DNA of 64,000 nucleotides from Eledone cirrhosa (GCA_964016885.1 OZ024740.1:393266001-393330000), one strand, 5' to 3'. Counted from the stretch's first letter, positions 6,488 through 46,499 are shown. Notes: a model not told the origin generated them from the sequence alone. Made by a program: numbers and translations.

Positions 6488-6558
6488 ATATACATATATA
6501 TATATATAAAATAATTAAGTCAAATATGTAAAATTTGGCTTCGTAATTTAAAAATATT

Positions 6559-6613
6559 ACTGCTATATATATTTCGGTGACAGCCATCATTGGCTGAGAC
6601 CTCTTCAGGCAGT
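6559..6613 (-). ncRNA. Minimal type I hammerhead ribozyme (left arm)
   Basis: Reverse complement: ACTGC CTGAAGA GGTCTCAGCCA ATGA TGGCTGTCACC GAAA T ATAT ATA GCAGT. Confidence 0.8.
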
Positions 6614-6836
6614 CAGAATTGGTGTGGGAAAGACAAGTACACATGTTGTTGAAGTGTGTTTTACTCCGTCAATACATCGATATGTCCAGCTCCTGGTTGT
6701 GTTGTCATTCCTCTAAGGAACTGGATTCATATGGTTCCAGTTCTTCAAAGGAACCAGGAGCTGGACATATCGATGTATTGACGGAGTAAAACACACTTCA
6801 ACAACATGTGTACCTGTCTTTTAGACACCAATTCGG

Positions 6837-6891
6837 ACTGCCTGAAGAGGTCACAGCCAATGATGGCTGTCATCGAAATATATATAGCAGT
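6837..6891 (+). ncRNA. Minimal type I hammerhead ribozyme (right arm)
   Basis: Stem I ACTGC/GCAGT; core CTGAAGA 6842-6848; stem II ACAGCCA/TGGCTGT; GAAA 6875-6878; minimal stem III with palindromic ATAT loop; cleavage triplet AUA 6884-6886. Confidence 0.85.
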
Positions 6892-7039
6892 AATTTTTTA
6901 ATTTAAAATAAACAAAGCCAAATTTTACATATTTGACTTAATTATTTTACATTACTCCGGAGTAAACAAACCAGCTTGCGTACTTCGTCGAGTGCTCCAA
7001 TCTGCATACTGAGGTGTTTGTAAACAACCAACATATACT

Positions 7040-7072
<33 letters not shown>

Positions 7073-7254
7073 AGAGTATTGAAGTTTGCTTGAAGCATTA
7101 TATATATATATATATATATATATATGATACAACAGTTACCTGATAGAGGTGAGCCTCCAAATAGGGATGATTGAGGAATCTCCATAAATCTATGTTTACC
7201 CTAACCACCAAAAGCAAGAGCTTTCTTCCAGTTATCTTTCCCCAACTGACAGGC

Positions 7255-8105
7255 TAATATTTGCCCATTTTCACTACACTCATTCACCTTCTAAAGAAAT
7301 CACTGGAGGAGAGCATTTGATTCTCTCTACCCTCACGTTCAAGTGGAATCTGAAAGGTTGGTGAGAGGTTGACTGAATAAGGAAGTGTCTGTCCTCAGTC
7401 TTAAACTCATCCACTTCCCAACTTCATTCACCATAGAAAAACTACCTTTCTTCATTGCTGAAAGATGGCAGCCAAGCGATTTTCCTAATGGAATCAGATG
7501 ATTGCTGGATCACATGCTACGTGTGAAAATAAGTATTCTATATAACTTCACATGTCAGTAATCCTCAGACACTGAATGAGTGTATGCAAAATGGTTTCAA
7601 TGCTCTTTATACTTCTCAGACAGTTAAGTCTCATGGTACCACCATGCCTTTTTATCTCAAACCAACTGGTAGCGCTGGCAAGATAAAGAGTTTTGGGAAG
7701 TTCTCTATAGTAATTCAAGGTTTGTGTCCTCTGAACAAAGGGATGCTCTTCAGCAGCTTCAGCTTTTGAAGAAGTGGAGAAAAAGCTGTTCACTTTGACA
7801 ACTGAACAAATGTTGCTGTACATTGCAGCAATCCAGTCCTTGAAAATACAACTAAAACTGCCTGCTTTGATGACAGACACTATGTATCAATGGTTGATCC
7901 TATAAAAAGCTTTTGATTGATCAAATTCTATCAGAGTCTCACTAAAGTCAGGTCTCTGACCAAAATTCTCTATGATGTTTGAAGTAGTGGATGGACCTAT
8001 TCAAGATCACATATGCTTGCATATCCTCAACCAGAACAATGATGAGAAGCACCAACCTCTTTGCTAACATAATGGCCAAAGTCTTAAACTCTGTATTCAG
8101 CAGAG
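7255..8105 (-). mobile_element. Old, internally deleted Tx1/L1-like LINE
   Basis: Minus-strand remnants LNTEFKTLAIMLAKRL, DQSKAFYRINH and WIAAMYSNICSVVKVN (RT) are joined to C-terminal C..S...ETILHTLIQC. Many stops. Confidence 0.65.
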
Positions 8106-8985
8106 TTCTTCTTCTTCACTCACTTATTCCTGAGAGGGTCATGGGGTAGAGTCCTCAAACACTCCTACCAGCGGGTCCTGTCAGAAGCAACCATCTCCAA
8201 TAGATCCGGTTTAGGCCCTAAGTGAAACAAGCCAAGCTCATGGATATTATCCAACCATCTTTCCCTGGGTCTCCTGCCAGTTGGTTTTGCCTGTAAAATC
8301 TGTCCAACAGTTCTTTCCTGAGACATTCTAGCGGCTCTACCTGGAGTGACTCTCTGCTCTCCTAGCTACATATTCTATCAAGTAATGTTACTTCAAAGAC
8401 CTTTCGTAGAAACCCTATTTCGGCCGCTTTTATTCGTGATAGTATTCTTTCAGTCATTACCCAAGATTCATGACCATAGGTAAGGGTTGGCACAAATACC
8501 GAATTGAAGATAGTGAGTTTGGCTTTTACACCTACCTATCTCCTAATTACCGACTGCTGGAGCTGGCGCATTACTGCACTAGCTCCTGCAATTCTTGCAC
8601 TTAATTTAGCCTCCTGCCTTCCATCGCTCATGAACACAGCCCTGAGATACTTGAACCTCTCTACCTGCTTCGGTGGAACATCATTCACATGTAGAGTGCA
8701 CTGCACAGACTTCCTTGAGAGGACAAGTGTCTCAGTTTTCACAGCACTGATTTTCATTCCAGCCATGCAGCACACGGCATCAAATCTACCAAGTACAAGT
8801 CAGAGATCACCTTCTGTCGAGTTAAGAAAAACCATGTCATCTGCAAATTCCAGCCGACTGATTCCAAACCCATCAGTCATAATACCACTTTCAACCCGAG
8901 TGTGCATGTCAATTCTGTTCATGAAAATAATGGTGACAGTATACACCCTTGGTGGAGTCTGACTCCCACATTGAATGGTTTCAAT
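8106..8985 (-). mobile_element. RTE-clade LINE family D (Expander/Rex3-like) 3' fragment
   Basis: Minus-strand EFADDMV and GMKISAVKTETLV...QVERFKYL...ARIAGASAVMRQL. (GAA)n tail at about 8106-8117. Homologous copy at 37.2-37.6 kb. Confidence 0.8.
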
Positions 8986-10545: not shown

Positions 10546-10579
<34 letters not shown>

Positions 10580-14077: not shown

Positions 14078-14151
<74 letters not shown>

Positions 14152-15005
14152 AGTGTGTAAATACAATGCATTCCTTTACCTTAGTAACATCATCAACTCA
14201 AGGGATATACACACTTCATGTGTGTGTGTATGTAAATCACAAACACAATATTAGCAAATAAAAAAAGGAGAATAAATGTTACACATGTGCGCATGCACAC
14301 ACACACACACATACATGCATATATATGCATAAATATACATATCTATGTAAACACATATACATATATCCATATATACACACACCTACATATAAGGCAGTGA
14401 ATTGGTAAAAGCCGAGAATCATTAAGGTGTTGGATAAAATTCTTTGCAGTAACTGTTCTGGTTGTCTACGCTCTGAGTTCAAATCCCACCTAAGTCAAAT
14501 TTGTCTATCACCCTTTCATGGCTGATAAAAAAAGTAGTGCTGGTGCCATGAGAAAATGCACCAAGTAGACTCTGTAAAGAGTTTGGTATTAGGAAGAGCA
14601 CCCAGCTGTAGAAATCATTCCTAAAATGGAATGTATGAGCAATACATGGTCCCCTTTGGGCATTCTAGTTTTGGACCATGATTATGATATTTTGATCACA
14701 ACAGTATTTTGAACTTGCAACAATACAATTGGAGTTCTTGCTTGAATCTAATGTCACATGACAGGTAATTTCTTGTAGCATGTATCCACAACATTATATT
14801 AGGGCCTCTGCAAAAGTTGAACAGACACAATGCTTATATATATCATCATCACCATTTTATGTCCATTTTTCCATGCTATCATGGGTTAGACAAGTTGTCC
14901 TGTTGTGGGCAATGCCAGGTCAAGTGATCATGTCTTACTCATACAGAACTGATTTAGGCTTTATTTCTATAGCTGGATGCCCTTCCTAACGCTAACCTCA
15001 TTTAC

Positions 15006-15450
15006 TAAGAAATGTGCTAGTAGCTGAAGTGTACAATAAAGTTATATCTGTATACATTCAGAGTGGGTAACCAAGACTGCATCAATGTGTCTATAAATAT
15101 ACACATATTTAATACGTAGGTATGTAAACATACCAGAAAATACAAATTTCCCTGAGAATTGAAAACAATCAAGTTCCCTATTAGGTAAAAAAATTGATTA
15201 AAAGTGTTTATAATTTTTCCGGTTTATGGGAAAATTCGTATATTTTTTCATGTTTACATGCCAACATATTAAATATGTGTATATTTCTATAAACATTGAT
15301 GCAGTCTTGGTTACCCACTCTGTATGTTTACTGATATAACTTTATCATACACTTCTACTGCTACTGCATTTCTTAATATATATCTTAATTACCATCACGA
15401 GCACTAATTATATGCAAATTAGTATATCCTTTACAGAATAATACTAAGAA
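15006..15450 (+). mobile_element. Older fold-back element (probable PLE end, no intact hammerhead)
   Basis: Diverged inverted arms about 15006-15152 and 15228-15375 (AGAGTGGGTAACCAAGACTGCATCAATG / CATTGATGCAGTCTTGGTTACCCACTCT), then a tail containing GAGCAC. Partial related copy about 15760-15880. Confidence 0.55.
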
Positions 15451-15463
15451 CAAATGGGTATAT

Positions 15464-15689: not shown

Positions 15690-15908
15690 ACAAATGGGTA
15701 TATAACCCCATCAAATACACATTTCCTTGTAGTCGATTGCATGAGACACATACATTTTCACGAGGGCCCAATTAGGTTTGAAAATCGATTAAATTAATAT
15801 TTTCTGGCATGTTTCCATGCCCACAAATTAAATATGTGTATATTCATATACACATCGATGCAGTCTCAGTTACCCACTCTTAATATATATATTTTTTATC
15901 CATAACAT

Positions 15909-15976
15909 CTCTGTCTGATGACCGATCCAGACGTATATTAATATTGTCTGGGATCCAGAAACCTTTGGTAATGGAG
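15909..15976 (+). ncRNA. Solo type I hammerhead ribozyme motif
   Basis: Stem I CTCTGT/ATGGAG (two G-U); CTGATGA 15915-15921; stem II GATCCAGAC...GTCTGGGATC; GAAA 15958-15961; CC-TTT-G-GTA cleavage region. Between TA runs. Confidence 0.7.
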
Positions 15977-16048
15977 TAGTTATATCTTGTGTTGTTCACT
16001 TTCTAATTAATATATATATATATATATATATAGTTTTAATATAGATGA

Positions 16049-16097
16049 GATTCTACAGGATTAGGACTGTTTCATTCTTTAGAAATCATCAGGAATC
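16049..16097 (-). ncRNA. Type I hammerhead ribozyme motif (left arm)
   Basis: Reverse complement: GATTC CTGATGA TTTC TAAA GAAT GAAA CAG TCCTAATC CTG TA GAATC. 5-bp stem I, 4-bp stem III, GUA triplet, weak stem II. Confidence 0.7.
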
Positions 16098-16102
16098 ATC
16101 AG

Positions 16103-16151
16103 GAATCCTGATGATTTCTAAAGAATGAAACAGTTCTAGTCCTGTAGAATC
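16103..16151 (+). ncRNA. Type I hammerhead ribozyme motif (right arm)
   Basis: GAATC CTGATGA TTTC TAAA GAAT GAAA CAG TTCTAGTC CTG TA GAATC. One mismatch in stem I. Confidence 0.62.
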
Positions 16152-17753
16152 TCATCTATATTAAAACTTTTATACTCTGCTATGTATTGAGTACCTGACT
16201 TACTGTGGTTACCTCCGATTCAACCCGGAATAACTTACCTATATATATATATATATATTTATATGCACACACACAAAGCGCGAGAGGGAGATAGACAGAG
16301 AGAGAGATCGGTGTTCATGGAGGTCTTATATAATTTATGATATATACAGCCACACAAACACATGTAAAAGATATACAGCAGAATACATATTTTCGGGTTT
16401 GCCACAATATACCAAAGAATCAAATTACAGTCACATCCAAAGAAAAAATACAAGAAGTGGGGAAAAATAATAAAAGAATAGAATCAATAAATTTCTACCA
16501 CCTTTACAGCATGATAAACAACAACAATAAAAGCTTGCAGGAATCTTTTTTCATACTAAATGTTTGTATGGTCCCACAACTCATAAAAGAGTCATGGGGC
16601 ACTGTATTGACATAAGGCATTTCTAGGTCATTTAAAAAAAATCTGACAAGGCTCATCTCCTCTCCAGGTCTAAATACAACAGATTTCTTCCAGATAAGGG
16701 TAGAGAGAATGAGGGACAAATACACAACCAGAATTTAGAATTTAAAATTTAAGCAAAATAAAATAAACTAAAAAATAAAAAAAACAATAACAAATAAATT
16801 AAATTAAATTAAAAAGTGAAATAAAAATAAAAATAAAAATAAAATAAAATAAGATAAAAAATGAAATAGAAATAAAATGAAATGAAAATAAAAAATAGAT
16901 AAATGAAAGAATAAAAAAAAATTGATAAATAAAATGAAGAAAAAACAACTTAAATCTAAGGTAGATCGAAAGTTAAAAGAGGTAACCACACACACACACA
17001 CATACTTACATATGTATGTATATATATACACATACACACACTGGGGCAGTATATATATAGGGCAAGCCATATATCGTTTGAGAAACATAGTATTTTATAC
17101 ACATAAAGCAAATAATATTCAGGAAAATGTACATACTTTAAGGTGGGAAAAGCCATCTTTTCACCTTAAGCTTTCTTCAGAGTTAAAAAAAAAACGAAGC
17201 GATCAATTGATCTAAGTATTGAATTATCGATTTTGGTAAAGCAACAGAAGACAAGAACTAAAAATCAGAGGTATTGTCTTTAAATATGTTCCAAACTGTA
17301 CAAAATACCCATACAATCTATATTTTCATGAATTAGTACATGCAATATAGGTGTATTTTAACTATAAACCTAGCAAACAGACCATAATTTAATAGCATCT
17401 AAGTGGTTTTATTAGTCCTTTAAGCAATACATGAGCCTTCCCATATCTATTGACATTTATACTATGATGCAAAAATGACATATGGCTATGTATAGTAATA
17501 AAGTTGCATTTAGCGACTTAGACTGTACATTATACATCCCTAATTTGCAAGCGTAATTTACATGGTCATATAAGAGTTAAAAATTAATATAATATATATA
17601 TATCAGATATTGAGTTAGAAACTCAAAATAGTCTCTTACCATTAAATAGCTCCAAGAAAGAAGTTTTTCTGAGCCGTGTAATATAATTGAATATACAAGA
17701 GAGATAAACACAAATATAAACATACATTTTATATATATATATATACCACAGAT

Positions 17754-19439
17754 AAGTACCACAGACGCTCTTTTCATTGTACGACAACTACAGGAGCAGT
17801 ACCTAGCTAAAAGTAAACCCCTATACTTAGCTTTTGTCGACTTGGAGAAAGCCTTCGACAGAGTCCCCCGTTCCATTATCTGGTGGGCTCTTAGAAAACT
17901 AGGTGTTGACGAATGGCTTGTGAGAGCTATACAAGCCATGTATAAAGAAACAGTCAGCAAGGTTAGAATTAACAACGAATATAGTGAAGAGTTTAGCGTA
18001 AAAGTTGGCGTCCATCAGGGCTCTGTTCTCAGCCCCCTACTATTTATTATTGCCCTTCAGGCTATAACAGAGGAGTTCAAGACCGGCTGCCCATGGGAAC
18101 TCCTATACGCAGATGACCTAACACTCATAGCTGAATCAATGGCCGAGCTAGAGAAGAAATTCCAAACATGGAAGCACAGTCTAGAATCAAAAGGCCTTAA
18201 AATTAACCTGGCTAAGACCAAAGTTCTAGTTTGTAGGAAAGAAAATAAGGCGGCGGTCCCTTCCGGGAAGTGCCATGCTCAGTGTGTAGGAAAGGCGTGG
18301 TAGAAACTCCATTTTGTGTCCGAAATGCAAAGTATGGGTGCATAAAAGATGTAGTGGGATTACAGGTAAGCTAACTAAGAACATAGATTTCACATGTGGC
18401 CGGTGCTCTGGTGCAATAAGTAGCAGCAAGTGCCCACAAAATACTAGCTCTTTCAACTGCGCAGAGGGCTCTATAAAAATAGTGGACAGCTTCCGTTACC
18501 TGGGTGACAAAATCAGCAGTGGGGGAGGGTGCTCAGAAAGTACAGTAGCTAGAGTCAGAACTGGATGGAAAAAGTTCAGAGAGCTTATACCACTATTAGC
18601 CGCTAAAGGGTTCTCCCTAAAAATGAAAGGCAGGTTGTATGATGCCTGCATACGAACAGCAATGTTGCATGGCAGTGAGACCTGGGCATTGTGTGCAGAG
18701 GATATACGCAGACTAGAGAGGAACGAAGCTTGCATGCTCCGCTGGATGTGTAATAGTAATATACGTGAACGGCAAAGCATAAACGAACTAAGGAAAAAAT
18801 TAGAAATAAGAGGGATCAGATGTTGTTTACTCGAGAGAAGGCTACGTTGGTATGGACACGTGATGCGCATGAAAGACGATAGCTGTATAACAAAGTGCAG
18901 GGCAATAAAGATAGACGGTAGCCACGGAATAGGCAGACCCAGAAAAGCCTGGGACGAGCTGATAAACTCCGACCTCACACACTTACACCTCTCCAAGACA
19001 ATGTCACTGGACCGAGACCTTTGGCGGTACTCAGTAATAGAGAAGACCCGCCTTACCTAAATACATAGTAAAACCTACTACAGTCAGTAGGCATCTCTAA
19101 CAAAATACACCCCCGTCCCACCCCCCACCCCATCCATACAACCCCCTTCCATGTAAAGTTATGTTGGTGCCATACCATCCAGGCCGAAACAAATGAGATC
19201 GTGTAGGTGTCACGACAAAAAAACACACAGTCCACGCTGTAATGTGGCCGTGTAGGCAACACGGTAAAAACCTCCCAGCCCCACACTGTAAATGTGGTTG
19301 GTGTTAGGAAGGGCATCCAGCTGTAGAAAACTGCCAGACAGTCCCATGCGAGCAAGACAATCACTCTTGCCTCAAGTGGGAAAACCCCCGTCCAAACCCA
19401 TGCAAGCATGGAACACGGACGTTAAACGTTGATGATGAT
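17754..19439 (+). mobile_element. RTE-clade LINE family A, 5'-truncated copy
   Basis: ORFs 17842-18303 (DLEKAFD, QGSVLSP, YADD) and 18314-19060 are separated by small frameshifts and are near-identical to the 41219-43687 ORF. 3' UTR and (GAT)n tail. (TA)n on both sides. Confidence 0.95.
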
Positions 19440-20148
19440 ATATATACACACACAAACATATCTGAACACATCTATACTTATGTAATCCATTGTAAAAATA
19501 TGCTTGCTTGTTAAACACATCCCTAAACCAACAACACTAATTATATGGTGATCTTTAATTCATTAAGTAATACAATTATAAATAGACACGCTGTAACACA
19601 GGGCAAAAATTAAACTGATTAATTTACAATTAGAAACACTGTTAAGTTCAACAACGCCACTTCCCAGTTTAAATTTACCGTGAGAAATCAGAATTTTGAA
19701 TGCCTAATATTTCCAAAAAAATATGATGTCTTCTACTTCTGATCTTCATTTATATTCGAAAAATGAACTTGACTAATAATAGTAAGTATGTTCCTACATA
19801 TATATCCATTAACACCGAAACTAATTACTATCACTACCACTGAACTATTTTCGCTTCACTTCCTGCTTTTTACTCTTCTCTCTATGTATATTATTTATCC
19901 ATGAGCAATGAACATTTTTCTAACAATTACAAGAAATAATATTATTAATATTAATAATGATGTACTGTCTTTTACTTCAATCTAAAAATACAATTTTTTA
20001 CAACTTTGTACTTTTACCTTGCTTTGCTTACGTTCATTTTGTGTTTGTTAATGCCCAACATTGGATACTGCATTTGTTTTTGAAATTTGTATTTAGCTAA
20101 ATTCTATCCCTTTTTATAATTCCTGATGATATGCAGATGTTATATTAA

Positions 20149-20364: not shown

Positions 20365-20414
20365 TTAATTGTGTTTTATGTAAATAATTGTTAATTGACT
20401 GTATCTGATTAACT

Positions 20415-21127: not shown

Positions 21128-21185
<58 letters not shown>

Positions 21186-22177
21186 TGCACAGATGGTTCT
21201 ATAGAAATAATGGATACCTTCTGTTACTTGGGTGACAAAATCACCAGTGGTGGAGGGTGCTCTGAAAGTACAGTAGCTAGAATCAGAATGGGATGGAAAA
21301 AGTTCAGAGAGCTTATACCACTATTGGCTGCTAAAGGGTTCTCTCTAAAAATGAAAGGCAGGCTGTATGATGCCTGCATACAAACAGCAATGTTACATGG
21401 CAGTGAGACTTGGGCATTGTGTGCAGAGGATATACGCAGACTGGAGAGGAATGAAGCTTGCATGCTCCGCTGGATGTGTAATAGTAATATATGTGAATGG
21501 AAAAGCATAAACGAACTAAGGGAGAAATTAGGAATAAGAGGGATAAGATGTTGTTTACTTGAGAGAAGACTACGTTGGTACGGTCACGTGATGTGCATGA
21601 AAGACGACAGCTGTATAAAAAAGTGCAGGGCGATAAAAATAGATGGTAGCCACGGAATAGGTAGACCCAGAAAAACCTGGGACGACTTGATAAATTCCGA
21701 CCTCACGCACTTACACCTCTCCAAGACAATGTCACTGGACTGGGATCTTTGGCGTTACACAGTAATACAGAAGACCCGCCTTGCCTAAGTACAAAGTGAA
21801 ACCTACAGTCAGTAGGCACCTCTAACAAAAATACACCCCCGTCCCACTACCCCCACCCCATCCACACTACCCCTTTCAATATAAAGTTATGTTGGTACCA
21901 CAACATCCAGGCCAAAACAAATGAGGTCGTGTAGGTGTCACGACAAAAAAAAACACACACAGTCCACGCTGTAATGTGGCCGTGTAGGTAACACAGTAAA
22001 AACCTCCCAGTCCACACTGTAAACGTGGTTGGTGTTAGAAAGGGCATCCAGCCGTAGAAAACCCGCCAGACAGTCCTATGCGAGCAAGTCAACCAATCTT
22101 GCCTCAAGTGGGAAAATTCCCGTCCAAACCCATGCAGACGTGAAAGATGGACGTTAAACGATGATGATGATGATGAT
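21186..22177 (+). mobile_element. RTE-clade LINE family A, short 3' copy
   Basis: ORF ending 21788 matches the family A C-terminus. 3' UTR, (GAT)n tail, (TA)n flanks. Confidence 0.93.
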
Positions 22178-22499
22178 ATATATATATATGTGTGTATGGA
22201 GTATGTTTGTGTGGTTAGGGAGTTTGCTTCACAACTATGTGGTTATGTGTTCAGCTTTACTGCATGGCACCTTGGGCAAGTCTCTTCTACTATAGCTTCA
22301 GGTTGACCGGTGCCTTGTGAGCGAAATTTGATAAACAGAAAGTGAAAAGTTCTGTGTATATGATGGGTAACATTTGTCTATATTTGTATGGTTTAGCAAA
22401 AAGGAGATTGATAAATTAATTATCAGGCACGAAAAATAAGTACTGACATTAATATGATTGACTAAATCAAGGTGGCCGCAGTTTGATGATAGAAACCAG

Positions 22500-23757
22500 T
22501 AAAATAATATATTTAAGGTCCTAGTAAGTAGAAGGGAAAACAGGACCCTGATCCTCCCAGAGAAATGCTCATGCTCAGTATGCAAGTATGTGTAGGTAGA
22601 AATTTGATCATCTGTCCCAAATGCAAACTATGGGATAGATGTCTTGGGATCTCAGGCAGCTTAGCTAAGAACGTAGGGTTTATGTGGCCATTGCACAGGA
22701 GCAGTAAGCAAAAGGTTCCCACAGGAAAGAAGCTCTATCAAATTTTTGGAGGGTTCCATAGAAGCAGTAGACAGCTACCTGGGTGACCAAATCAGCAGTG
22801 GAGGTGGATGTTCTGAAAGTACTGTAGCTAGAGTAAGAATGGGATGGGAAACGTTCAGGGAGTTACTACCACTGCTAGCTACTAAAGGGTTTCTCAAAAT
22901 ATGAAGGACAGATTGTATAATGCATGTATATGAACAGCTATGTTGCATGGTAGCAAGGTCTTGGCACTGTGTGCAGTGGACCTGCGAAGAGTGGAAAGAA
23001 ATGAAGCTTGCATGTTTTGATGGATGTGTAATATAAATGAATGGCAAAGCATAAATGAACTGAGAGAGAAAAAAATTGGGCATAAGAGGAATCAGATGCA
23101 GTGAGCAGGGGAGGAGATTGCGTTGGTATGGACATGTGATGTGTATGAAGGATGAGAGCTGTATAAAAAAGTGCGGAGTGCTCAAAGTTGATGGAAGCTA
23201 TGGAGTAGGAAGACCTAGGAAGACTTGGGATGAGGTGATAAAAGCTGACGTTGCACAATTGAACTTCTCAAAGGTGATGACATAGGACTGAGATCTTTAG
23301 CCTTTAGCGTTATACAGTAATACAGAAGACCCATCTTCCACCACCCCATACTCAGGTTGTAACATACATCTAGTGTGCACCTTCACCTCCCAGGTCCTAA
23401 CACCCCACCCTATCACCCATGTCCTAGATCTACCCCAATCCCCACCCAAGTCCTCAGTTCACACTGTAAAGTGTTCGTGTAGGTGCCACAACAAAAAGCA
23501 CCCAGCACACACTGTAAAGTAGTTGTGTATGTGTCATGACAAAAAGCACCCAAGCACCCAGTACACACTGTAAATGTGGTTGGTGTTAGGAAGGGCATCT
23601 AGCTGTAGAAGCCAAGCCAGAGCCAGTTCTGTATGAGCAAGTTATGGTCACCTTATCTGACTTGTCTCAGAATGGGGCAACTCATCTAACCCATGGTAGC
23701 ATGGAAAAATGGATGTTAAACAGTGATGATGGTGGCAGCGGTGACAATGATGACGAT
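22500..23757 (+). mobile_element. Older degenerate RTE copy
   Basis: GIRGIRC...RRLRWYGHVM...GRPRKTWDEVIK with many stops and frameshifts. Related 3' UTR, degenerate (GAT)n tail. Confidence 0.85.
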
Positions 23758-23809
23758 ATTTATATATATATATATATATATAATTAAAAGATGGTTAAAA
23801 AGTTCCATG

Positions 23810-23880
23810 TATTTTATTATGCGCATTTCAAAAACAAATATCATCCAGGGACGATATTTGTGTTCTCAGCAGATAAAATA
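23810..23880 (-). ncRNA. Minimal type I hammerhead motif with CUGCUGA (A6C) core
   Basis: Reverse complement: TATTTTAT CTGCTGA GAACACAAATATCGTCC CT GGATGATATTTGTTTTT GAAA T GCGC ATA ATAAAATA. 8-bp stem I, long stem II, palindromic GCGC loop. Confidence 0.78.
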
Positions 23881-23932
23881 GGGAGACATGATATGAAGCT
23901 TAAAAAAACACTTGTGAGCAAGGTAGTGTCTA

Positions 23933-24004
<72 letters not shown>

Positions 24005-24090
24005 TAGACACTACCTTGCTCACAAGTGTTTTTTTAAGCTTCATATCATGTCTCTCTATTTTATCTGCTGAGAACACAAATATCGTCCAT

Positions 24091-24433
24091 GGAGGCACAT
24101 GGCTTAGTGGTTAGAGCATTGGCCTTGCAATCGAAAGATTGTGAGTTCAATTCTCAGACCAGGTGATGTGTTGTTTCCTTGAGCAAGACACTTTATTTCA
24201 CATTGCTCCAGTTTACTCAGCTGTAGAAATGAGATGATAGGGACTGGGGTCCATATCATTCCACTGCAAAGTGGTCGTGTAGGTGCCACGGCAAAAAAGC
24301 ACCCAGCACTCACTATAAATGAGGTTGGTGTTAGGAAGGGCATCCAGCTGTAGAAATCAAGCCAGAATCAGTTCCCGTCCCACCCTTGAAAGCAGGGAAA
24401 AGCGGACGTAAAATGATGATGATGATGATGATG
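24091..24433 (+). mobile_element. CORE-type SINE with RTE-like tail, full length
   Basis: Same family as 6180-6487, ends in (GAT)n. Interrupts the stem II apex of the right-arm hammerhead (24057-24465). Confidence 0.9.
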
Positions 24434-27096
24434 ATATTTGTTTTTGAAATGCGCATAATAAAATACATGGAACTTTTTAACCATCTTTTAATTTCTTCTT
24501 ATATATATAGATACATAGATAGAGAGAGAGATTTGTTCTACCTCTGAGTTCAAATCCCCCCAGAGTGAATTTAGCTTTTCCTCCTTCTGAGTTTGATAAA
24601 ATAACCTGTCAGATATTGGGGTTGATAAAATGATTTCCCACCCTAATTGTGCCCAAATTAGAAAATGTCATTGTATTCTTACCAAAACAACAACACAACA
24701 TTTTCAATATATACTTTCTGAAATAACAGATATCCACAGAGCTGTGTGGTTTCATATCAATCTAAGATCCTAAGGTCTGAAACAGTTATGATACTACATA
24801 TTGCTGTCCATCTTACTCTCAGTTTGGTTGTCTATCATCATATTTAACTATCTAACAATTTTATTTTTCATTCCCAATACATCTATAAACATGATACATC
24901 ATCATTGATTTAACAACTTAATAATGAGCCTCTCTAGATATTTTATAGTATTTAGTTATATTTATGACATATATAAAAATGTGATTGTGCATGACTTTGT
25001 GGTAAGGGCATTCAACTCACAATCGTAAGGTCATGAGTTCGATTCTTGGTGGGGCATTTTGTCCTTGAGCAAGACACTTTATTTCACCTTGCTCCAGTCA
25101 ACTCAGCTGGCAAAAATGAGTTGTACCAGTAATTCGAAGGACTAGCTTTGTCACATTCTGTCATGCTGAATCTCTCTGAGAACTAAGAGAAGAGTACGCA
25201 TGTTTGTGGAATGTTCGGTGACTTGTAGGTTAATTTCATGAGCAGGCTGTTCCATTAATCATATCAACTGGAACATTTGTCATAACTGACGGAGTGCCAC
25301 TACTACTACTATTTAGTTATACCTTTTTTATGTTGAGTTCAAATAATTGGATTTTCCTTTTATCTTTCCAGGGTTGGTAAAATAAGTACCAGTTATACAC
25401 TGCAGACAAATTAATGGACTATATCCACCTCACACTATGTGCTTATGTTAGAAATAATTTTTCACTTTGAGAGTACAAATTATAAACGTATAGCAATTAA
25501 TGTTGATATATATTATTCATAATTCATTTGATATTGTTTGCAGATCAATCCTCATCTGAGTAGCTAAACAATATATCATATGCCTGCCTCATATAATTAC
25601 ACATTAGAAGAAATGGTAAACATAGGCTTTTCATACAATAGTATTAAAGCTCCAATAACCACTGTAAACCAATGAACCATTGATTGGCCTGTTAGACATC
25701 TTTGTTATTATCCAACAAGGTAATTGCTCATGCATGCCTGTAACAAGATCTTCCACATTCAAACACATCTAATTATTATAGAACACACATAAAAAGAGAC
25801 ACAACATGCACATACACATGCATGTGTATGTGTGTATCTGTTTATATGTGCGTTCTACAATAGTTAGATGTGTTGGAATGTGGAAGATCTGCAGAGATTG
25901 GTTAGAAAATAGTTGAGTATGGTTTATTGGATATGAAATGCAAACTTGCATGTAAGCCAAAGTGCAAAGAAGCTAGATAGAAGTTGAGCATTGAAAGTAT
26001 TAGTTGATGTATTCGAGAGATAAGAACCATATAAGAACCATATAAAACAAATTGATGATGAGTGCTTGATGAAAATTGTTGTGTAAGAGCCAACAGTGAA
26101 AATTATAACACACATAAATATATATGAGGAAGACAAAAAGATAAAGCATGGGCAGTTATGATGGGATGAAATCTCAGGAGTGGGTGTATGTTGAGTGGGT
26201 GTATGTTGTCCATTGTATGATGGTGGTGGTATGGAAAAATGAACATTAAAACAATGCTGATGATGCTGATTAGTTGTTCAATGCTGAGGTCAGATCTTAT
26301 CAATAACAAGTGACTGGGAAGGGGGGAGTGAAAGTGAAACCAACCCATAACCCATTTATGTGCTTTGTGTATGTATGAGAGATGTGTATATGAGAGAGAT
26401 AGAGGGAGAGAGTGAAAGAGGGAGAGAGATAGAAAGAGAGACAGAGTGAAAAGTGTAAGGAGGAAGAACACAGAGGGGTACGTGATGTGATTATTTGTTA
26501 AAAAAAATTATGTATAGTTATAATTAGTGATATTTTGATATAAATCTTCATATAAATGTATAAGCACGTATGACTATAATATCCTCATTCTTTCTTATAA
26601 TTTATTTATATAACCATACGACCTCTGCATGTGCCATTATCATTTGATTAGTTTTTCTCTTTGTCTATCTAACCATTTCATTGTCCGTTGACTTAACTGT
26701 TTCTCTCCAACTGTTCATTTACTTATTTATCTGTCTAACTTTCTATCAATATATCTATCTACTTTATATTAATGAAAATTACATCAAATTACCTATTTAT
26801 CAATCCTGGAGATCTTAGATTAGAAGTCCATCATGCTTATCAATATATTATAGATGGATGATTCATAGAATTCAACCCACGTTATGGATCTCTAAGATGA
26901 TGTGTATTCTAGTCACTGGGAATTTTCATTGCCAACTACATTGTGTGGCACAAAACCAATAAAATTAAGGTATTGAATTAATCTAGTAGCAGGAGTAGCA
27001 TATGCAATGTGCCCTGAATTTTAAAGGGACCTAGGTTAAATACGTTGTTACTATAGTACTACTGCCTTCAAGTTTTATGAACAACTAGGTAGTTAA

Positions 27097-36994: not shown

Positions 36995-37171
36995 AAGCAT
37001 GAAATAATAGATATAAAAATGCCAAACTTTATAAAGCAGTAGTTTCCAAAATTATTTTGTTGTTGATCCCTCACAGAATTTTCTAAAAATCAGAGCTCAT
37101 GCCCATATTTTACACACAATCCCCACCACCTTAATTTTAATGAGCCCTTAAATAAAATGAAAAATGTTTTT

Positions 37172-38637: not shown

Positions 38638-38684
<47 letters not shown>

Positions 38685-38687
<3 letters not shown>

Positions 38688-39257: not shown

Positions 39258-39268
39258 TATATATATAT

Positions 39269-39510
39269 AATGCTCTATCTATTCCCCTGTCAATTTTATC
39301 TTTGCAACAATCCAATACACATTGTAATGTGGTTGGTGATAGGAATGGCATCCAGCCATAGAAAGCTTGCCAAACAAAGGGTTGGGAGGACCATTCAGTT
39401 GTGTCAAAGACATGACAACCTCTCTAGTGTACTTGGTGGAATGTGAGACCATACATAAGCAAGACACAGATCCCTGGCCTGTCTTGGAGGTCAGTAGCCT
39501 TGCTTCAGTA
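39269..39510. repeat. Inverted duplicate of 43812-44058
   Basis: Reverse complement is almost identical over about 240 bp, apart from one indel region. Bounded by (TA)n. Confidence 0.92.
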
Positions 39511-39521
39511 TATATATATAT

Positions 39522-40318
39522 AATTGTTATATAGAAAGGTGCATTATTGGTTGTGTCATACGGTCCAATAAACTTTTGTTAGCAATATTAAATTCTCCAC
39601 GCTTTTGTATATCTCCAATTCCATTTATGGGAACAGCTAGATGATGTAACATGGAGTATTTGTATCAAAATAAAGATCCAAAGGCATGGTAAAAATTTCC
39701 AATCATTTTAATCACGACACGTTTCTATAAGAGATAGATCGATTGTGCGGCCATGATTGATTATCACTGATCTCGGCAGGTGAAAATGAATTGTATAGGA
39801 TTGCGGTTGACCCAATTTCTCCAATTTACATTGTCAAATTGAGATTTGACCAATATAACATTTGTTGTTTTGTAAACTAACTTTTGGTGAATACTATGTT
39901 GGTATATATATATATATTTTTTCTTCGACTTCGCGTCGGTGTGTGTGAGTGTATGTGTACTCACTCACACTAACTGTGACCGACTGTAATTCTAAAGATT
40001 TGATGTTGAGATTAGACCCGTCCAGCGTCTTTTACAGCTATTGAGAGATAGACTTGATAGTTTTATGACCCTAACTGAGGACGATAACAGTCGGCGTGTT
40101 TTGGCTGCTAAATCTTCCTATGGGGGACAAAACTCTAGTGAGTGAACATCGTTAAATTTTCTCCCTCATATCAAGGATTTGAAGACAATTCATTTTCACC
40201 TGACAAGATCAGTGATAATCGATCATGGCCGCACAATCGATATATCTCTTATTGAAACATGTGTCGTGATTAAAATGATTGGAAATTTATACCATGCCTT
40301 CGGATCTTTATTTTGATA
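39522..40318 (-). mobile_element. Fold-back element with decayed hammerhead in each arm (PLE-like)
   Basis: Arms 39663-39794 and 40185-40318; unpaired tail 39522-39662; spacer contains (TA)n. Confidence 0.75.
40196..40269 (+). ncRNA. Decayed minimal type I hammerhead (mirror copy 39712-39783 on minus)
   Basis: TCAC CTGACAA ...long stem II... GAAAC ATGT GTC GTGA. The mirror has CTGCCGA and GAAACGTGTC. Together they reconstruct CTGACGA...GAAAC ACGT GTC. Confidence 0.62.
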
Positions 40319-40667
40319 TGGAGGCACATGGTTGGTGGTTAGAGCATTGGCCTTGCAATCGAAAGGTTGTGTGTTCAATTCTCAGACCGGGTGATGTGTT
40401 GTTTCCTTGAGTAAGACACTTTATGTCACATTGTTCCAGTTTACTCAGCTGTAGAAATGAGATGATAGGGACTGGGGTCCATATCATTCCACTGCAAAGT
40501 GGTCGTGGAGGTGCCACGGCAAAAAAGCACCCAGCACTCACTATAAATGAGGTTGGTGTTAGGAAGGGCATCCAGCTGTAGAAATCAAGCCAGAATCAGT
40601 TCCCGTCCCACCCCTGCAAGCAGGGAAAAAGCGGACGTAAAATGAAATGATGATGAAATAATGATGA

Positions 40668-40670
<3 letters not shown>
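40319..40670 (+). mobile_element. CORE-type SINE with RTE-like tail
   Basis: Near-identical to 24091-24433. Confidence 0.9.
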
Positions 40671-40688
<18 letters not shown>

Positions 40689-40709
<21 letters not shown>

Positions 40710-43689
40710 CATCATCATCATCATCATCATCAGGTTTAGCGTCCGTGTTCCACGCTTGCATGGGTTTGGATGGGGGTTTTCCCACTTGAGGCAAGAGTGG
40801 TTGTCTTGCTCGCATAGGACTGTCTGGCGGGTTTTCTACAGTTGGATGCCCTTCCTAACACCAACCACATTTACAGTGTGGGGCTGGGAGGTTTTTACCG
40901 TGTTGCCTACACGGCCACATTACAGCGTGGACTGTCTGGCGGGTTTTCTACAGCTGGATGCCCTTCCTAACACCAACCACATTTACAGTGTGGGGCTGGG
41001 AGGTTTTTACCGTGTTGCCTACACGGCCACATTTACAGCGTGGACTGTGTGTTTTTTTGTCGTGACACCTACACGATCTCATTTGTTTCGGCCTGGATGT
41101 TGTGGGACCAACATAACTTTACATTGAAAGGGGCGGTGTGGGTGGGGTGGAGGGTGGTGGGACGGGGGTGTGTTTTGATAGAGATGCCTACTGACTGTAG
41201 TAGGTTTTTACTTTGTATTTAGGTAAGGCGGGTCTTCTCTATTACTGAGTACCGCCAAAGGTCTCGGTCCAGTGACATTGTCTTGGAGAGGTGTAAGCGT
41301 GTGAGGTCGGAATTTATCAGCTCGTCCCATGTTTTTCTGGGTCTGCCTACTCCGTGGCTACCGTCTATCTTTATTGCCCTGCACTTTGTTATACAGCTGT
41401 CGTCTTTCATGCGCATCACGTGACCGTACCAACGTAGCCTTCTCTCGAGTAAACAACATCTGATCCCTCTTATTTCTAATTTTTTCCTTAGTTCGTTTAT
41501 GCTTTGCCGTTCACGTATATTACTATTGCACATCCAGCGGAGCATGCAAGCTTCGTTCCTCTCTAGTCTGCGTATATCCTCTGCACACAATGCCCAGGTC
41601 TCACTGCCATGCAGCATTGCTGTTCGTATGCAGGCATCGTATAACCTGCCTTTCATTTTTAGGGAGAACCCTCTAGCGGCTAATAGTGGTATAAGCTCTC
41701 TGAACTTTTTCCATCCAGTTCTGACTCTAGCTACTGTACTTTCAGAGCACCCTCCCCCACTGCTGATTTTGTCACCCAGATAACGGAAGCTGTCCACTAT
41801 TTCTATAGAACCCTCTGCGCAGTTGAAGGAGCTAGTATTTTGTGGGCACTTGCTGCTACTTATTGCACCAGAGCACCGGCCACATGTAAAATCTATGTTC
41901 TTAGTTAGCTTACCTGTGATCCCACTACATCTTTTATGCACCCATACTTTGCATTTGGGACATAAAATGGAGTTTCTACCTACGCCTTTCCTACACACTG
42001 AGCATGGCCATTTCCCCGATGGGACCGCCGCCTTATTTTCTTTCCTACAAACTAGAACTTTAGTCTTAGCCAGGTTAATTTTAAGGCCTTTTGATTCTAG
42101 GCCGTGCTTCCACGTTTGGAATTTCTTCTCTAGTTCGGTCATTGATTCAGCTATGAGCGTTAGATCATCTGCGTATAGGAGTTCCCATGGGCAGCCGGTC
42201 TTGAACTCCTCTGTTATAGCCTGAAGGGCAATAATAAATAGTAGGGGGCTAAGAACAGAGCCCTGATGGACACCAACTTTTACGCTAAACTCTTCACTAT
42301 ATTCGTTGTTAATTCTAACCTTACTGACTGTTTCTTTATACATGGCTTGTATAGCTCTCACAAGCCATTCGTCAACACCTAGTTTTCTAAGAGACCACCA
42401 GATAATGGAACGGGGGACTCTGTCGAAGGCTTTCTCCAAGTCGACGAAAGCTAAGTATAGGGGTTTACTTTTAGCTAGGTACTTCTCCTGTAGTTGTCGT
42501 ACAATGAAAAGAGCGTCTGTGGTACTTTTGCCTGACACAAACCCGAACTGCATTTCATCTAGATCAATTCTCTCTCTGATTAGTTGCGCTATTACTTTTT
42601 CCGTGACCTTCATGACCTGGTCGATTAATTTAATGCCTCTATAGTTACTCCTATCTAGGGCATCTCCTTTTCCCTTATAGCAGTTAACGATGATGCTGCT
42701 ACGCCATTCCTTCGGAACAACCCCATTCTGTACGACTTGGTTAACTATCCGGGTGACCATGGTGTGTCCCACCGAACCAGATGCCTTCAGCATCTCAGCA
42801 ACTATTTCCGAAGGCCCAGCCGCCTTACCCGTCTTCATATCTTTGATTGCCTTACTTATTATACTACCTTCAACTAACACTGCTGGTCCCTCTATTGGAT
42901 CGATCTGGAGGAGACTGTCTTTCTCCCATTTGTTCTCCTCATTTAGAAGCCTTTCGTAGTGACACTTCCAAGCTACCTTCTTATCAGCGTCGGTGATGGC
43001 TAGTATGCCATCATCGTTAAGTACACACTTCTCCCCGACAATATCACGGTTTTCCTTGACACATTGCCTGGCAATCCTGAACACCTCACGTTTTTGGTCC
43101 TCACGTTGTAGAACATGCTTGAACTTTCTTTCCTCTGCTTCCCTTCTTGCGAAGTACACTTGTCTCCTAGCTTCCCTCCTGGCCACTTGATAGTCTTCTC
43201 TACTTCCCCCATCCCGCCATACTTTCCAAGCCTGCTTTTTGGCCTTAATTGACTCCTCCACCTTACTGTTCCACCACCATGTTACTCTCCTCCTACCTAC
43301 AGGCCTGCTCCAGCCACAGACTTCGTCTGCCGCCATCAGCAGGTTTGCTCTCAGGAATTCCCACTGTTCCTCTATATTATACGACTCTAATTGCTCTTCC
43401 TTACTGTCGAAAGCGTCAAGTAATATGCTTTGGAATTTATTTCTGGCTATGGGGTCCTTTAGCTTCCATATTTTTCTCCTGAGGATAGTCCTCTTCCGCT
43501 GTCTAGTACGTCTCGTCCTGACTATGAGGTCGCTAATTATCAGTCTATGTTGGGAGGTGAATTCTTCATGGGGGTGGGATTTAGTGTTAACAACAGACAC
43601 TCTGTCACGTCTTCTGGTAAGGATATAATCTACCTGGCTTGTGTGTTCCCCCGATCTATAGGTGATCAAGTGATTGTCTCGTTTTTTGA
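40689..43689 (-). mobile_element. RTE-clade LINE family A, longest copy (5'-truncated within the endonuclease)
   Basis: Open ORF2, 3' UTR with a 112-bp tandem duplication (40817-40928 / 40929-41041), (GAT)n tail, (TA)n on both sides. Confidence 0.96.
41219..43687 (-). CDS. RTE LINE ORF2, partial: APE endonuclease C-terminus, reverse transcriptase, PHD-type finger
   Basis: 822 uninterrupted codons: TYRSG..SQVDYIL...SQHRL (APE), NYRGIKL, QFGF, FVDLEKAFD, GVHQGSVLSP, YADD, FRYLG, RRLRWYGHV. The first 23 aa of the listed 845-aa ORF are microsatellite, so there is no native start. Confidence 0.93.
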   Translation of the reverse strand, partial: KKRDNHLITYRSGEHTSQVDYILTRRRDRVSVVNTKSHPHEEFTSQHRLIISDLIVRTRRTRQRKRTILRRKIWKLKDPIARNKFQSILLDAFDSKEEQLESYNIEEQWEFLRANLLMAADEVCGWSRPVGRRRVTWWWNSKVEESIKAKKQAWKVWRDGGSREDYQVARREARRQVYFARREAEERKFKHVLQREDQKREVFRIARQCVKENRDIVGEKCVLNDDGILAITDADKKVAWKCHYERLLNEENKWEKDSLLQIDPIEGPAVLVEGSIISKAIKDMKTGKAAGPSEIVAEMLKASGSVGHTMVTRIVNQVVQNGVVPKEWRSSIIVNCYKGKGDALDRSNYRGIKLIDQVMKVTEKVIAQLIRERIDLDEMQFGFVSGKSTTDALFIVRQLQEKYLAKSKPLYLAFVDLEKAFDRVPRSIIWWSLRKLGVDEWLVRAIQAMYKETVSKVRINNEYSEEFSVKVGVHQGSVLSPLLFIIALQAITEEFKTGCPWELLYADDLTLIAESMTELEKKFQTWKHGLESKGLKINLAKTKVLVCRKENKAAVPSGKWPCSVCRKGVGRNSILCPKCKVWVHKRCSGITGKLTKNIDFTCGRCSGAISSSKCPQNTSSFNCAEGSIEIVDSFRYLGDKISSGGGCSESTVARVRTGWKKFRELIPLLAARGFSLKMKGRLYDACIRTAMLHGSETWALCAEDIRRLERNEACMLRWMCNSNIRERQSINELRKKLEIRGIRCCLLERRLRWYGHVMRMKDDSCITKCRAIKIDGSHGVGRPRKTWDELINSDLTRLHLSKTMSLDRDLWRYSVIEKTRLT

Positions 43690-45081
43690 TGTATATATAT
43701 ATATGTGTATATATATATATGTATATATATATTATATTATCATCATCATCTAACATCTACTTTCCATGCTAACAAGGGTTGAATGAGTCTACATAGGCCA
43801 AGCCAACTCAGTACTGCAGCAAGGCTACTGACCTCCAAGACAGGCCAGGGATCTGTGTCTTGCTTATGTATGGTCTCACATTCCACCAAGTACACTAGAG
43901 AGGTTGTCATGTCTTTGACACAACTGAATGGTCCTCCCAACCCTTTGTTTGGCAAGCTTTCTATGGCTGGATGCCATTCCTATCACCAACCACATTATAT
44001 CACCAACGACATTACAATATTGCAAAGATAAAATTGACAGGGGAATAGATAGAGCATTGATAAATTAGTTGACTAATTATTGTATATTTTGTATGAATAA
44101 TTATGTTTGCAATATTAATGTCTGTGTGTGTTTATACATAGAAAGGGATAAAGGTAGAGAAGAAAGAGCGCAAGAGAAAGTGAGAATAAGGATGAGAGCT
44201 GAAATTGATTGTGTTGTGAGAGAGAGTAAAAGGAGAGTAAAAAAGAAGTGAAATCTGTAAAAAAAGTTTTAGACAGAAATATTTCTTTATTTCTTTCTCT
44301 TTTATATTTTCATTAAGATACTTTTGTTTATGACTTTTTTCTTCATCTTTAGAAAATATCAACAGAAAAGAGTAATGTTTATATATATGCATAAATACAT
44401 ATCTACATGTATAGATAGATGTATACACATATGTGTGTTTGTTTATATATAAACACACATATATTTTTATATGTATGCATTCATACACACACTTCACAAA
44501 ATAGTGGCAAGGCTGTCTCTCTTTGTGAAGAATTAAATCAGGGAAGAGACTGTATAAGTTTTGACAGAATTGAACTGAAAACAGGAGTCAGATTAGTTGA
44601 GTTGAAATGATTATAGTAATCTTAAACATCTGGTGAAGTTTGGAGGCAAAATAAAAAGTAAATGAATAAGAAAAAAATAACAACAACAAAAGTCAGACTC
44701 CTGAAAAAAACACACACAAAACAAGACAAAACGAAAGAGTAACAGCTACAACAACAAAACTCTCTTGGAAAAACAACAATAAGTACCTTAGCAACAATTG
44801 AAGAAGAAAAATAGGTGCACAGCACCAGCAGCCTTATTAAAGAGTAATCAGCTGTGACAAAGTGCCATAGTCAGCCCTGCATCACACAAAGGAGAAATGA
44901 TGTAGATGTGAAGAAATATGCAGTGATGTGCAGCCGTGTGTAAAACAATGTTAAATTATTGAAACTGGTTACTTACGCACACATATTGCCCCCACAAAAA
45001 GAAGAAAAAAAAAATGAGGGGTTTCTGAATATATATATATATATATATTTAGTATGAGCAAAGTTTCATACATTTAACATG

Positions 45082-45172
45082 TATGTGCTACCATTGGTTT
45101 CCAGGTCCAGTCATGGCCACAACTGTATAATGGAGGAGGTAATTTTAAAATGCCCCTTCATTCAGGCACATA
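45082..45172 (-). ncRNA. Type I hammerhead motif, CUGAAUGA core (left arm, stem II more decayed)
   Basis: Reverse complement: TATGTGC CTGAATGA AGGGGC...GGACCTG GAAAC CAATG GTA GCACATA. Confidence 0.6.
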
Positions 45173-45190
45173 GACAAAGATATTTTTGTC

Positions 45191-45281
45191 TATGTGCCTG
45201 AATGAAGGGCCAGTTTAAAAATGCCTCCTCCATTATACAGTGGTGGCCATGGCTGGCCCCCGAAACCAGTGGTAGCACATA
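45191..45281 (+). ncRNA. Type I hammerhead motif with one extra core nucleotide (CUGAAUGA)
   Basis: 7-bp stem I TATGTGC/GCACATA; CTGAATGA 45198-45205; stem II GGGCCAG/CTGGCCC; GAAA 45262-45265; C-CAGTG-GTA cleavage region. Confidence 0.72.
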
Positions 45282-46499
45282 CATGTTAAGTGTATGAAAC
45301 TTTGTTTATACTATACAAGCTCTCTTCCAACAGATTGAGCACTGTTTTCCTTTGTCTTTCATTTATGGATTTCTACCAACACACACACATATATACTCTT
45401 TTACTTGTTCCAGTCATCCGGCTGAGGCCATGTTGGGGTATATATATATATATAATAGATGGCATGGCATGCTGATAAGATAAGTTCATTCTTGTTCCAT
45501 TCAAATACTCTTACTATTTATACTACAGCTACTACTACTACTGTTACTATTCTCTGGTTCTCCATGTGGCTGTGGCCTCTGAAGTGTCATGTAATTGTAG
45601 TCACGCACCTCTTCAATCACCTTTGGACAATGATGATGGTTAACAATGTGACCATGTATATTCAGTTTATTGTTGTTGAGCCATGCGTTAGTCCTAATCA
45701 ATAAAACCTATCCTTAACCCTTTCATCATCATATGTCTAATGAAAGGCACTGCCTATGATCCACCATTAATTTTGAAAATAAAATAAAAATTGATGGGAT
45801 TTTGAAATATAACTTATTTTCTTATTATTAATTTGATGTTTGGAACATAACAAAGATTCTTAGATTTTTGTAATGTTGAACCAGGGGCAATTCTAGGCAG
45901 TTTGGTATCAATAAGCTGAAGGCATTCCAGCCACAAGCAACCATGTCTTTTGTTCAGGCATATCATATCAAAGATTATATTAGTTTTTTTAAAGACAATA
46001 CATTGTGATTTTATGTAAATTGCTATAAATCTAGTAGCTTGAGTAACTCTGAGAGGCTTTCTTATCAGCTTGCTTTGCCTCCCTTTACAGTTCATTTAGA
46101 CTCCCTTGAGTCAGGAATTTGTCTTGAGTCCCTCCTGACTATTTTTCTAGAGCAGTTTTTTCCAACCTTTAAGCAGAACCTCTCCCTAAAACACTTAGAT
46201 ATTTATGACCATACCTCCAACGTTTACTCTTATGTACTAAAGATAGTGGCTGTATTTAAACTTAAAATGTAAACAAGGTTGTTTTAAGTTCAATGCTTGC
46301 TATGTGGAGCAAGATGCCAGATCTATGCTGATGATGTTTTGGTCTTAGAGCACAGAATGCACTCTGGTATTAATAATAACATATTGAGACATCCATACAT
46401 TTTTGAAGCAAACGTTTTAAAAATAAAATTAAAAATCTATTAGAATATAATCTAATTTAGCAGCATAGTCTGTTTTTCCCTTATCTTTACTTCACTGAT

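Follow-up and report, generated by a model that had tools for sequence, protein, structure and literature searches.

The window analyzed here, a 64,000-nucleotide stretch of the Eledone cirrhosa genome (GCA_964016885.1, OZ024740.1:393266001-393330000), holds five fold-backs, labelled E1 to E5 in window order, with predicted hammerhead ribozymes in both arms. We consider it very probable that they are short, head-to-head terminal-repeat insertions of five families of Penelope-like elements (PLEs) with Hydra-clade protein motifs. Our overall reading, to which we give a probability of about 0.7, is that these terminal-repeat fold-backs are made anew in (TA)n via two fixed internal start sites. 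The pairing of arms with unlike ends, the fact that either arm may reach further than its partner, and the minor alleles shared by the two arms of a copy suggest that the inversion arises anew at each insertion, likely by priming from both target strands. The layout itself (inverted pseudo-long terminal repeat, one-sided tail, hammerhead and (TA)n target) is already known and is not a new element or switch; its value lies in a testable account of how the inverted, tailed structure forms.

Five Penelope-like families

A preliminary description of the window had placed inverted repeats at 6507-7042, 16032-16240, 23782-24500, 39522-40318 and 45051-45380 and judged them unrelated to one another; all five are present, and their best mutual match has an E-value of 0.45. 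In the list below, family positions are counted from hammerhead C3, 3′ ends are called short or long, the tail is the additional outer sequence of the longer arm, and the 5′ wall is the position near which many arms of a family stop.

6507..6733, minus strand: tail-less arm of E1, family positions -125 to +110 from hammerhead C3, with a TA run outside
6559..6613, minus strand: predicted type I hammerhead of E1 (CUGAAGA, long stem II, palindromic loop III), recognized by the descriptor
6728..6733, no strand: E1 junction, a CATATG palindrome common to both arms, at the family 5′ wall
6727..7042, plus strand: tailed arm of E1, predicted hammerhead at 6837-6891, tail at ~6953-7042 opening with an ACTC hairpin
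16032..16097, minus strand: tail-less arm of E2, predicted hammerhead at 16049-16097
16098..16103, no strand: E2 junction filler, which varies among copies
16104..16240, plus strand: tailed arm of E2, core at 16108 with a stem I mismatch, tail at 16169-16240
23782..23938, minus strand: tail-less arm of E3, predicted hammerhead at 23810-23880, core CUGCUGA vs. CUGAUGA in the family
23939..23998, no strand: E3 junction, (AT)30, at the family CATATG wall
23999..24500, plus strand: second arm of E3, ending at the short end without the family tail, its loop II split by a short interspersed element (SINE)
24094..24437, plus strand: that SINE, a later insertion with a tRNA-like head; other copies at 6180-6486 and 40319-40670
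39522..39794, minus strand: tailed arm of E4, -15 to +261, tail at ~39522-39660, decayed hammerhead with core at 39779
39792..40318, plus strand: tail-less arm of E4, -407 to +118, with 390 nt of upstream sequence and a decayed hammerhead (core at 40200); a SINE follows
45051..45183, minus strand: tail-less arm of E5, predicted hammerhead with the 8-nt core CUGAAUGA, core at 45165
45180..45380, plus strand: tailed arm of E5, core at 45198, junction ATAT at 45180-45183, tail at 45314-45380 opening with a GCTC hairpin

The one-sided tail attributed earlier to all five is found in E1, E2, E4 and E5 and is absent from E3, where both arms stop close to the short end, without the 80-nt tail of the family, and differ in length by ~7-14 nt only. 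In E4 the tail sits on the left arm, and the 390-nt center is part of the tail-less right arm and consists of upstream sequence of the element itself. The TA-repeat flanks are likewise present with two exceptions, the right side of E4 (a SINE) and that of E5 ((CA)n, then a short TA run). The E3 (AT)30 is likely an expansion of the central ATAT, and the change from CUGAUGA to CUGCUGA is present in both E3 arms.

A first look at the 3.0-Gb genome returned 1,612-3,023 candidates per family (candidates, not copy numbers). The copies analyzed further were top BLAST hits, including hits to whole-fold-back queries for E1, E2 and E5; half-element queries (those of E2 and E3 starting at the wall itself) gave 126 copies with 155 arms, E5 being undercounted owing to de-duplication. 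Of the two origins proposed in the preliminary description, truncated ends of many PLE families are supported, as each arm leads into a reverse transcriptase (RT)/GIY-YIG open reading frame (ORF) elsewhere in 5/5 families. Dedicated ribozyme-only elements are not: an inverted partner lies within the reference span in 61 of the 126 half-query copies, junctions vary, and no allele is fixed in one arm type.

No linked RT/GIY-YIG ORF occurs in the window itself, all ORF links being in copies outside it. These are loci L221-L223 and L325 for E1, L155, L326 and L328 for E3, and L258, L331 and L332 for E5 (subfamilies 72-82% identical to the E5 reference). For E2, the tail in L230 reaches an ATG 44 nt later, followed by RT and endonuclease, with a far repeat 3 kb past the stop, and for E4 locus L152 reads repeat-ORF-repeat. 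The RT N-terminal motif is RWR in E1 and E2, RWV in E3, GWK in E4 and RWK in E5, with DKT in all five; the CxCX5C linker is found in E1-E4 and is degenerate in the E5 copy read. The ORFs have a C-terminal endonuclease, which by eye has no CCHH. The predicted type I hammerhead lies in the terminal repeat, sense to the ORF.

Several features agree with the C-terminal endonuclease-bearing (EN+) Hydra clade as set out in passages of Craig et al. (2021, PMC8557442): a single ORF with RT and C-terminal GIY-YIG, RWK-type and DKT motifs, the CxCX5C linker, a terminal-repeat hammerhead, a (TA)n target, an inverted 5′-truncated copy and a one-sided tail. The tails of the five families (~65-140 nt) are longer than the 30-40 nt given there. 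An octopus family, Hydra-1_Obim, is listed with a (TA)n preference in the supplement of that paper; by eye, E5 has stem III sequence and RT segments in common with it, whereas the hammerhead listed for Hydra-1_Obim matches none of those in E1-E5.

Three side observations stand beside this. Locus L155 also holds, at 1830-3859 (+), a decayed Neptune-like PLE ORF with a CCHH-type endonuclease, adjoining the E3 copy on the opposite strand. The E1 ORF copy of L325 (G000:C5:43277500-43286000, minus), read with L351, begins at +104, directly behind a TA run, and extends to +110; it is exactly one permuted short-site-to-short-site unit, whose 5′ end carries the tail in direct orientation. Several families are stacked in the same TA runs, and the flanks of one often carry arms of another (L005, L096, L177, L278x). 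A fold-back or miniature inverted-repeat DNA transposon, copied whole as a fixed unit with terminal inverted repeats, was rejected on the unequal ends, the variable junctions and the roughly half of copies that are not inverted. The head-to-tail hammerhead tandems of non-LTR retrozymes were not seen among these copies, which are head-to-head pairs and single arms.

Arm ends, putative start-site motif and 5′ wall

Arms of each family end 3′ at one of two positions: +110 or +203 in E1, ~+62 or +130 in E2, +105 or +185 in E3, +124 or +261 in E4, and +119 or +182 in E5. A TA run abuts 342 of the 389 arm ends classed as short or long, and single non-inverted copies end at either fixed site. Among 167 inverted pairs, 140 combine a short with a long end (6 are long+long, 3 short+short, 18 unclassed). 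Within the 138 short+long pairs with close junctions, the two arms reach equally far upstream to within 15 nt in 94, while the tail-less arm outreaches its partner by >15 nt in 25 and is outreached by it in 19. In L118, L093 and L245 the arms do not overlap, each holding sequence absent from the other; because a folded-back complementary DNA (cDNA) cannot yield a partner holding sequence that the cDNA lacks, both arms are probably RNA-templated. Copies selected for an ORF and readable at both ends (n = 10) mostly pair a long tail-less arm with a short inverted tailed one (8 copies; 1 reverse, 1 short+short). In E3, the inverted tailed arm terminates between +68 and +145 in 7/10 cases; such clustering about the short site (+105) would be expected of two primers using a single RNA.

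The sequences of the arms likewise suggest that the inversion probably forms anew at each insertion. Divergence within vs. between copies is 5.3 vs. 7.6% in E1, 2.7 vs. 4.8% in E2, 3.1 vs. 7.8% in E3, 3.4 vs. 4.2% in E4 and 14.1 vs. 17.0% in E5. Minor alleles common to both arms of a copy number 107, 23, 48, 9 and 28 in E1 to E5, against permutation means of 13.4, 2.1, 6.1, 1.2 and 9.4, and in each family exceed all 1000 permutations, with or without CpG sites. The comparison of arms in the five families revealed no allele fixed in one arm type, and the E2 junction filler differs from copy to copy.

A short motif, RCTC, lies 5-10 nt 3′ of all nine readable sites (5 short and 4 long, the latter from families other than E3), whereas none of 20,000 random draws shared any comparable 4-mer. 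At 7/9 sites it forms the 5′ strand of a predicted hairpin. By eye, a consensus printed just before Hydra-1_Obim in the PMC8557442 supplement ends in a similar GCTC...GAGC-like sequence.

On the 5′ side, the wall stands at -124 in E1, -6 in E2, -71 in E3, -82 in E4 and -18 in E5. Among the 155 half-query arms, 69 stop no more than 6 nt away from it, compared with 12 in the 125 nt on its upstream side. The sequence at the wall is TCATAT in four families, and the remaining wall (E2) lies ~32 nt below TATAAATA; junctions often fall on the ATAT/CATATG palindrome, with overlaps of 1-13 nt. The preliminary description had put the inversion point at or shortly upstream of the ribozyme, the link to the ribozyme being indirect: arms pile up at the wall, 5-124 nt upstream of the core, and seldom start at the cleavage site, and in E4 the inversion point is 407 nt from the right-arm ribozyme. 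Cleaved RNA as the template was rejected: arms run through the uncut cleavage site, and 2/54 internally truncated arms begin within 4 nt of it.

We regard the wall as probably the transcript start. According to passages of PMC2377424, Drosophila Penelope has its transcription start 46 nt ahead of a 75-nt intron; this intron ends at hammerhead helix I in the part of PMC4209133 that treats it, and the E1 wall has about the same spacing to its hammerhead as the Penelope start. It is somewhat unlikely that the wall instead marks where cDNA ends anneal to one another or to the TA target through ATAT microhomology: four walls do hold ATAT, which is self-complementary and matches the target, yet the E2 wall is sharp without ATAT, other ATAT sites (E1 -75, E4 -32) are not comparable hot spots, and arm ends are skewed downstream, with few in the 125 nt above the wall.

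Formation of the inverted pairs

Under the overall reading, the endonuclease would cut (TA)n on both strands, an activity with an in vitro precedent in the Poseidon element in passages of PMC11167929, and the two target ends would prime at different sites, short for one and long for the other, the stretch between the sites becoming the tail. The nearby RCTC, usually opening a predicted hairpin, would position the enzyme, and both cDNAs would be extended toward the 5′ end of the RNA, across the uncut hammerhead. If the RNA came from the promoter of the repeat itself, synthesis would run off at the transcript start, and this would account for the wall; on read-through RNA the cDNAs would go on into the 3′ untranslated region and ORF, and both size classes, wall-ending and ORF-reaching, are seen among the copies. 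A head-to-head joint between the cDNA ends would then form through microhomology, frequently that of the ATAT palindrome at the wall, or with filler, by a presumed repair route. We find it reasonably probable that both cut target strands prime in this two-ended manner. A more specific version, held tentatively and at a little under even odds, would be a programmed twin priming in which the duplicated RCTC hairpin docks two RTs at two fixed sites of the uncut RNA, each primed by one (TA)n strand; the tail would be one duplication unit, and the tiny fold-backs would be paired run-off ("strong-stop"-like) cDNAs ending at a TCATAT initiator and annealed via ATAT. If true, a single rule would cover the whole class, accounting for its inverted repeats, its one-sided tails and where the inversion point falls.

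The published view, given in passages of PMC3846280 and PMC8557442, keeps the PLE origin; priming would happen once, after which the cDNA or RNA would snap back or prime itself at a palindrome, and endonuclease resolution would set the tail. A template switch might also take part. Junctions on ATAT/CATATG with overlaps of 1-13 nt, arms more alike within than between copies, and the nearly equal 5′ reach of 94/138 pairs would all suit it. A snapped-back copy must, however, be a sub-part of its template, and 25/138 tail-less arms reach further though the tail is only in the other arm; with arm pairs lacking any overlap, single copies ending at either site and the same motif 3′ of both sites, we judge this improbable. 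Less probable still is self-propagation of the short forms as non-autonomous elements (retrozyme- or SINE-like, with an internal promoter) that Hydra-type proteins mobilize in trans, even if the inversion forms at insertion. Wall-starting short copies are indeed the commonest class (69/155), Penelope has an internal promoter (in the passages of PMC2377424 that concern it), and retrozymes derive from such repeats (in part of bioRxiv 10.64898/2026.07.22.740005). Against this, short and ORF-bearing copies are the same in sequence and ends, no arm-type-specific alleles were found, the window shows no head-to-tail array of units, and short copies have lost a putative E2 TATA box, which is situated upstream of the wall.

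The preliminary description had also raised the thought of a double-stranded RNA switch or an ADAR/Dicer substrate, for which the present data show no need. A palindrome copied whole as a functional unit (a fold-back element, or a double-stranded RNA or ribozyme switch) is the least probable of these readings. Whole-element queries do return dozens of near full-length palindromes, yet junctions vary, an inverted arm is absent from about half of the half-query copies, the two arms of a copy mirror each other's variants instead of inheriting them by arm, and the copies in the window are decayed or interrupted by SINEs.

A number of points count against the overall reading. Nine inverted pairs have the same end on both arms, and the E3 copy of the window is among them. 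Tailed-arm ends cluster at the short site in E3 and E2, but 0/6 E1 and E5 copies selected by ORF show this. E4 (6/32 arms) and bystander E3 copies (2/14) have a weak wall, and RCTC does not form a clean hairpin at two of the nine sites. Arms of one copy are discordant at diagnostic sites in 26/69 minor-allele cases in E1, 5/24 in E2, 3/25 in E3 and 8/24 in E5, or 42/142 overall, which speaks against a strict one-template view; shared alleles are often private to one copy (55/70 in E1), as later arm-to-arm conversion could also produce. Mixed templates or such conversion may thus be involved. As for sampling, the whole-fold-back queries of E1, E2 and E5 bias the copies toward symmetric short+long pairs, and a few automatic calls on very short arms are doubtful (L092, L021, L133, L170). 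Finally, Pfam is nearly blind to these ORFs: its GIY-YIG matches on five ORF pieces all fall below the cut-off, and the best GIY-YIG match (E 0.00044) belongs to the different element neighboring the E3 copy in L155. The clade is therefore called on protein motifs read from translations of decayed copies.

Twin priming of LINE-1, a model reportedly put forward by Ostertag and Kazazian in 2001, is said to have a second target strand prime the same RNA, giving a 5′ inversion joined by microhomology. In LINE-1 that strand primes at a random microhomology and the resulting segments are non-overlapping, whereas in E1-E5 both sites are fixed and the arms usually overlap into a palindrome.

The Poseidon element PAc (Frangieh et al., 2024, PMC11167929, in its passages on priming) in vitro cuts and extends both strands of AT-rich DNA, has two internal starts bounding a tail, and uses uncut RNA with no need of hammerhead cleavage. 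It belongs to another clade, and those passages leave inverted insertions unexplained and report no strand difference in start site; by eye, its printed template has a CUC...GAG hairpin ~8 nt past one start region and not clearly past the other. Inverted terminal repeats with a tail (parts of PMC3846280 and PMC8557442) and (TA)n targeting by Hydra elements (Craig et al., 2021, in part) have been published, and dual minimal hammerheads on opposite strands, separated by ~100-700 bp, have been reported from Schistosoma (Cervera and De la Pena, 2014, PMC4209133, in the relevant section). The non-LTR retrozymes, as far as described in portions of bioRxiv 10.64898/2026.07.22.740005, resemble E1-E5 in being non-coding, bearing type I hammerheads and deriving from PLE terminal repeats; they differ in being head-to-tail tandems, whereas the copies of E1-E5 are arranged head to head or stand as single arms, and are continuous with ORF-bearing copies.

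How tandem and inverted PLE structures form is listed as an unresolved question in passages of PMC8557442, which contain nothing on two-ended priming, a start-site motif or a 5′ wall; nor did we find these proposed for PLEs in the literature covered, which included few subscription papers. The fold-backs thus offer a natural record of the mechanism, in which the fixed ends, RCTC and the wall mark precise targets for mutation and measurement, and an in vitro system exists (PMC11167929, in part). Annotating them as PLE debris also guards against filing them as fold-back DNA transposons, microRNA precursors or new ribozyme elements.

Predicted hammerheads and neighboring repeats

Outward-reading hammerheads had been described in both arms of every fold-back. 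The shape is recognizable in 10/10 arms, and a purpose-made type I descriptor accepts 6 of them (both arms of E1 and E5, the left arms of E2 and E3), compared with 0.2 hits per window and zero divergent pairs in 40 shuffled windows. The right arm of E2 fails on a stem I mismatch, that of E3 on the ~345-nt SINE within loop II, and both E4 arms on their cores (CTGCCGA and CTGACAA vs. CTGACGA in the family) and a bulged stem I. An Rfam search of the window returned no hammerhead family, its matches being TA-driven microRNAs and partial tRNAs in SINEs.

In the E2 family, the one tested for covariation (88 arms, 81 distinct, truncated arms included), pairing holds in 87.5% of stem cells, and stem I shows covariation between subfamilies, with 38 double-change cells vs. 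19.2 in shuffles (0/500 shuffles as high); measures counting pairs or pair types were not above shuffles in the same arms. Single-arm folding z-scores for E1 to E5 are -1.5, 0.0, -3.6, -1.1 and -1.5, weak except in E3. In topology (type I), enlarged helix II and short palindromic helix III, the motifs resemble the minimal hammerheads of metazoan PLEs in the sections of PMC4209133 devoted to them, from which they depart in the 8-nt core of E5, a U-U pair at the base of stem II in E2, and stem II spans of 47-56 nt in E4 and E5. The E5 core, at 45165 (-) and 45198 (+), is the family norm, with a branched stem II of ~56 nt. The ribozyme is likely a passenger of the terminal repeat, and the genomic fold-back copies are likely dead. 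Candidate donor/acceptor pairs were noticed by eye near the hammerheads of E4 (38-47 nt) and E2 (62 nt), putative introns like that of Drosophila Penelope.

A sixth hammerhead family, missed in the preliminary description, is represented by a single tail-less arm at 15889-16010 (+), with its core at 15915 and a TA run shared with the left end of E2. It has 2,909 first-look candidates, with inverted and tailed copies elsewhere in the genome and, by eye, a TCATAT wall and a GCTC hairpin at the tail start, 5 nt past the short end.

Other repeats surround these elements. The tRNA-headed SINE family inserts in or beside the fold-backs and their TA runs, at 6180-6486, 24094-24437, 40319-40670 and 62590-63012. 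An older 382-nt palindrome at 15000-15381 (arms 76% identical; related piece at 15791-15889; matches in L334) holds no hammerhead by the type I descriptor and is possibly a decayed DNA-type fold-back. A 145-nt palindrome (84%) at 25746-25890 has no match among the genome loci retrieved. Related fragments resembling long interspersed elements occur in both orientations at 4743-5993, 17754-19484, 21186-23731, 40929-43398 and 55357-57839; by resemblance they may be of RTE type, and two of them (17754-19344 and 40929-42527) are 96% identical and inverted relative to each other.

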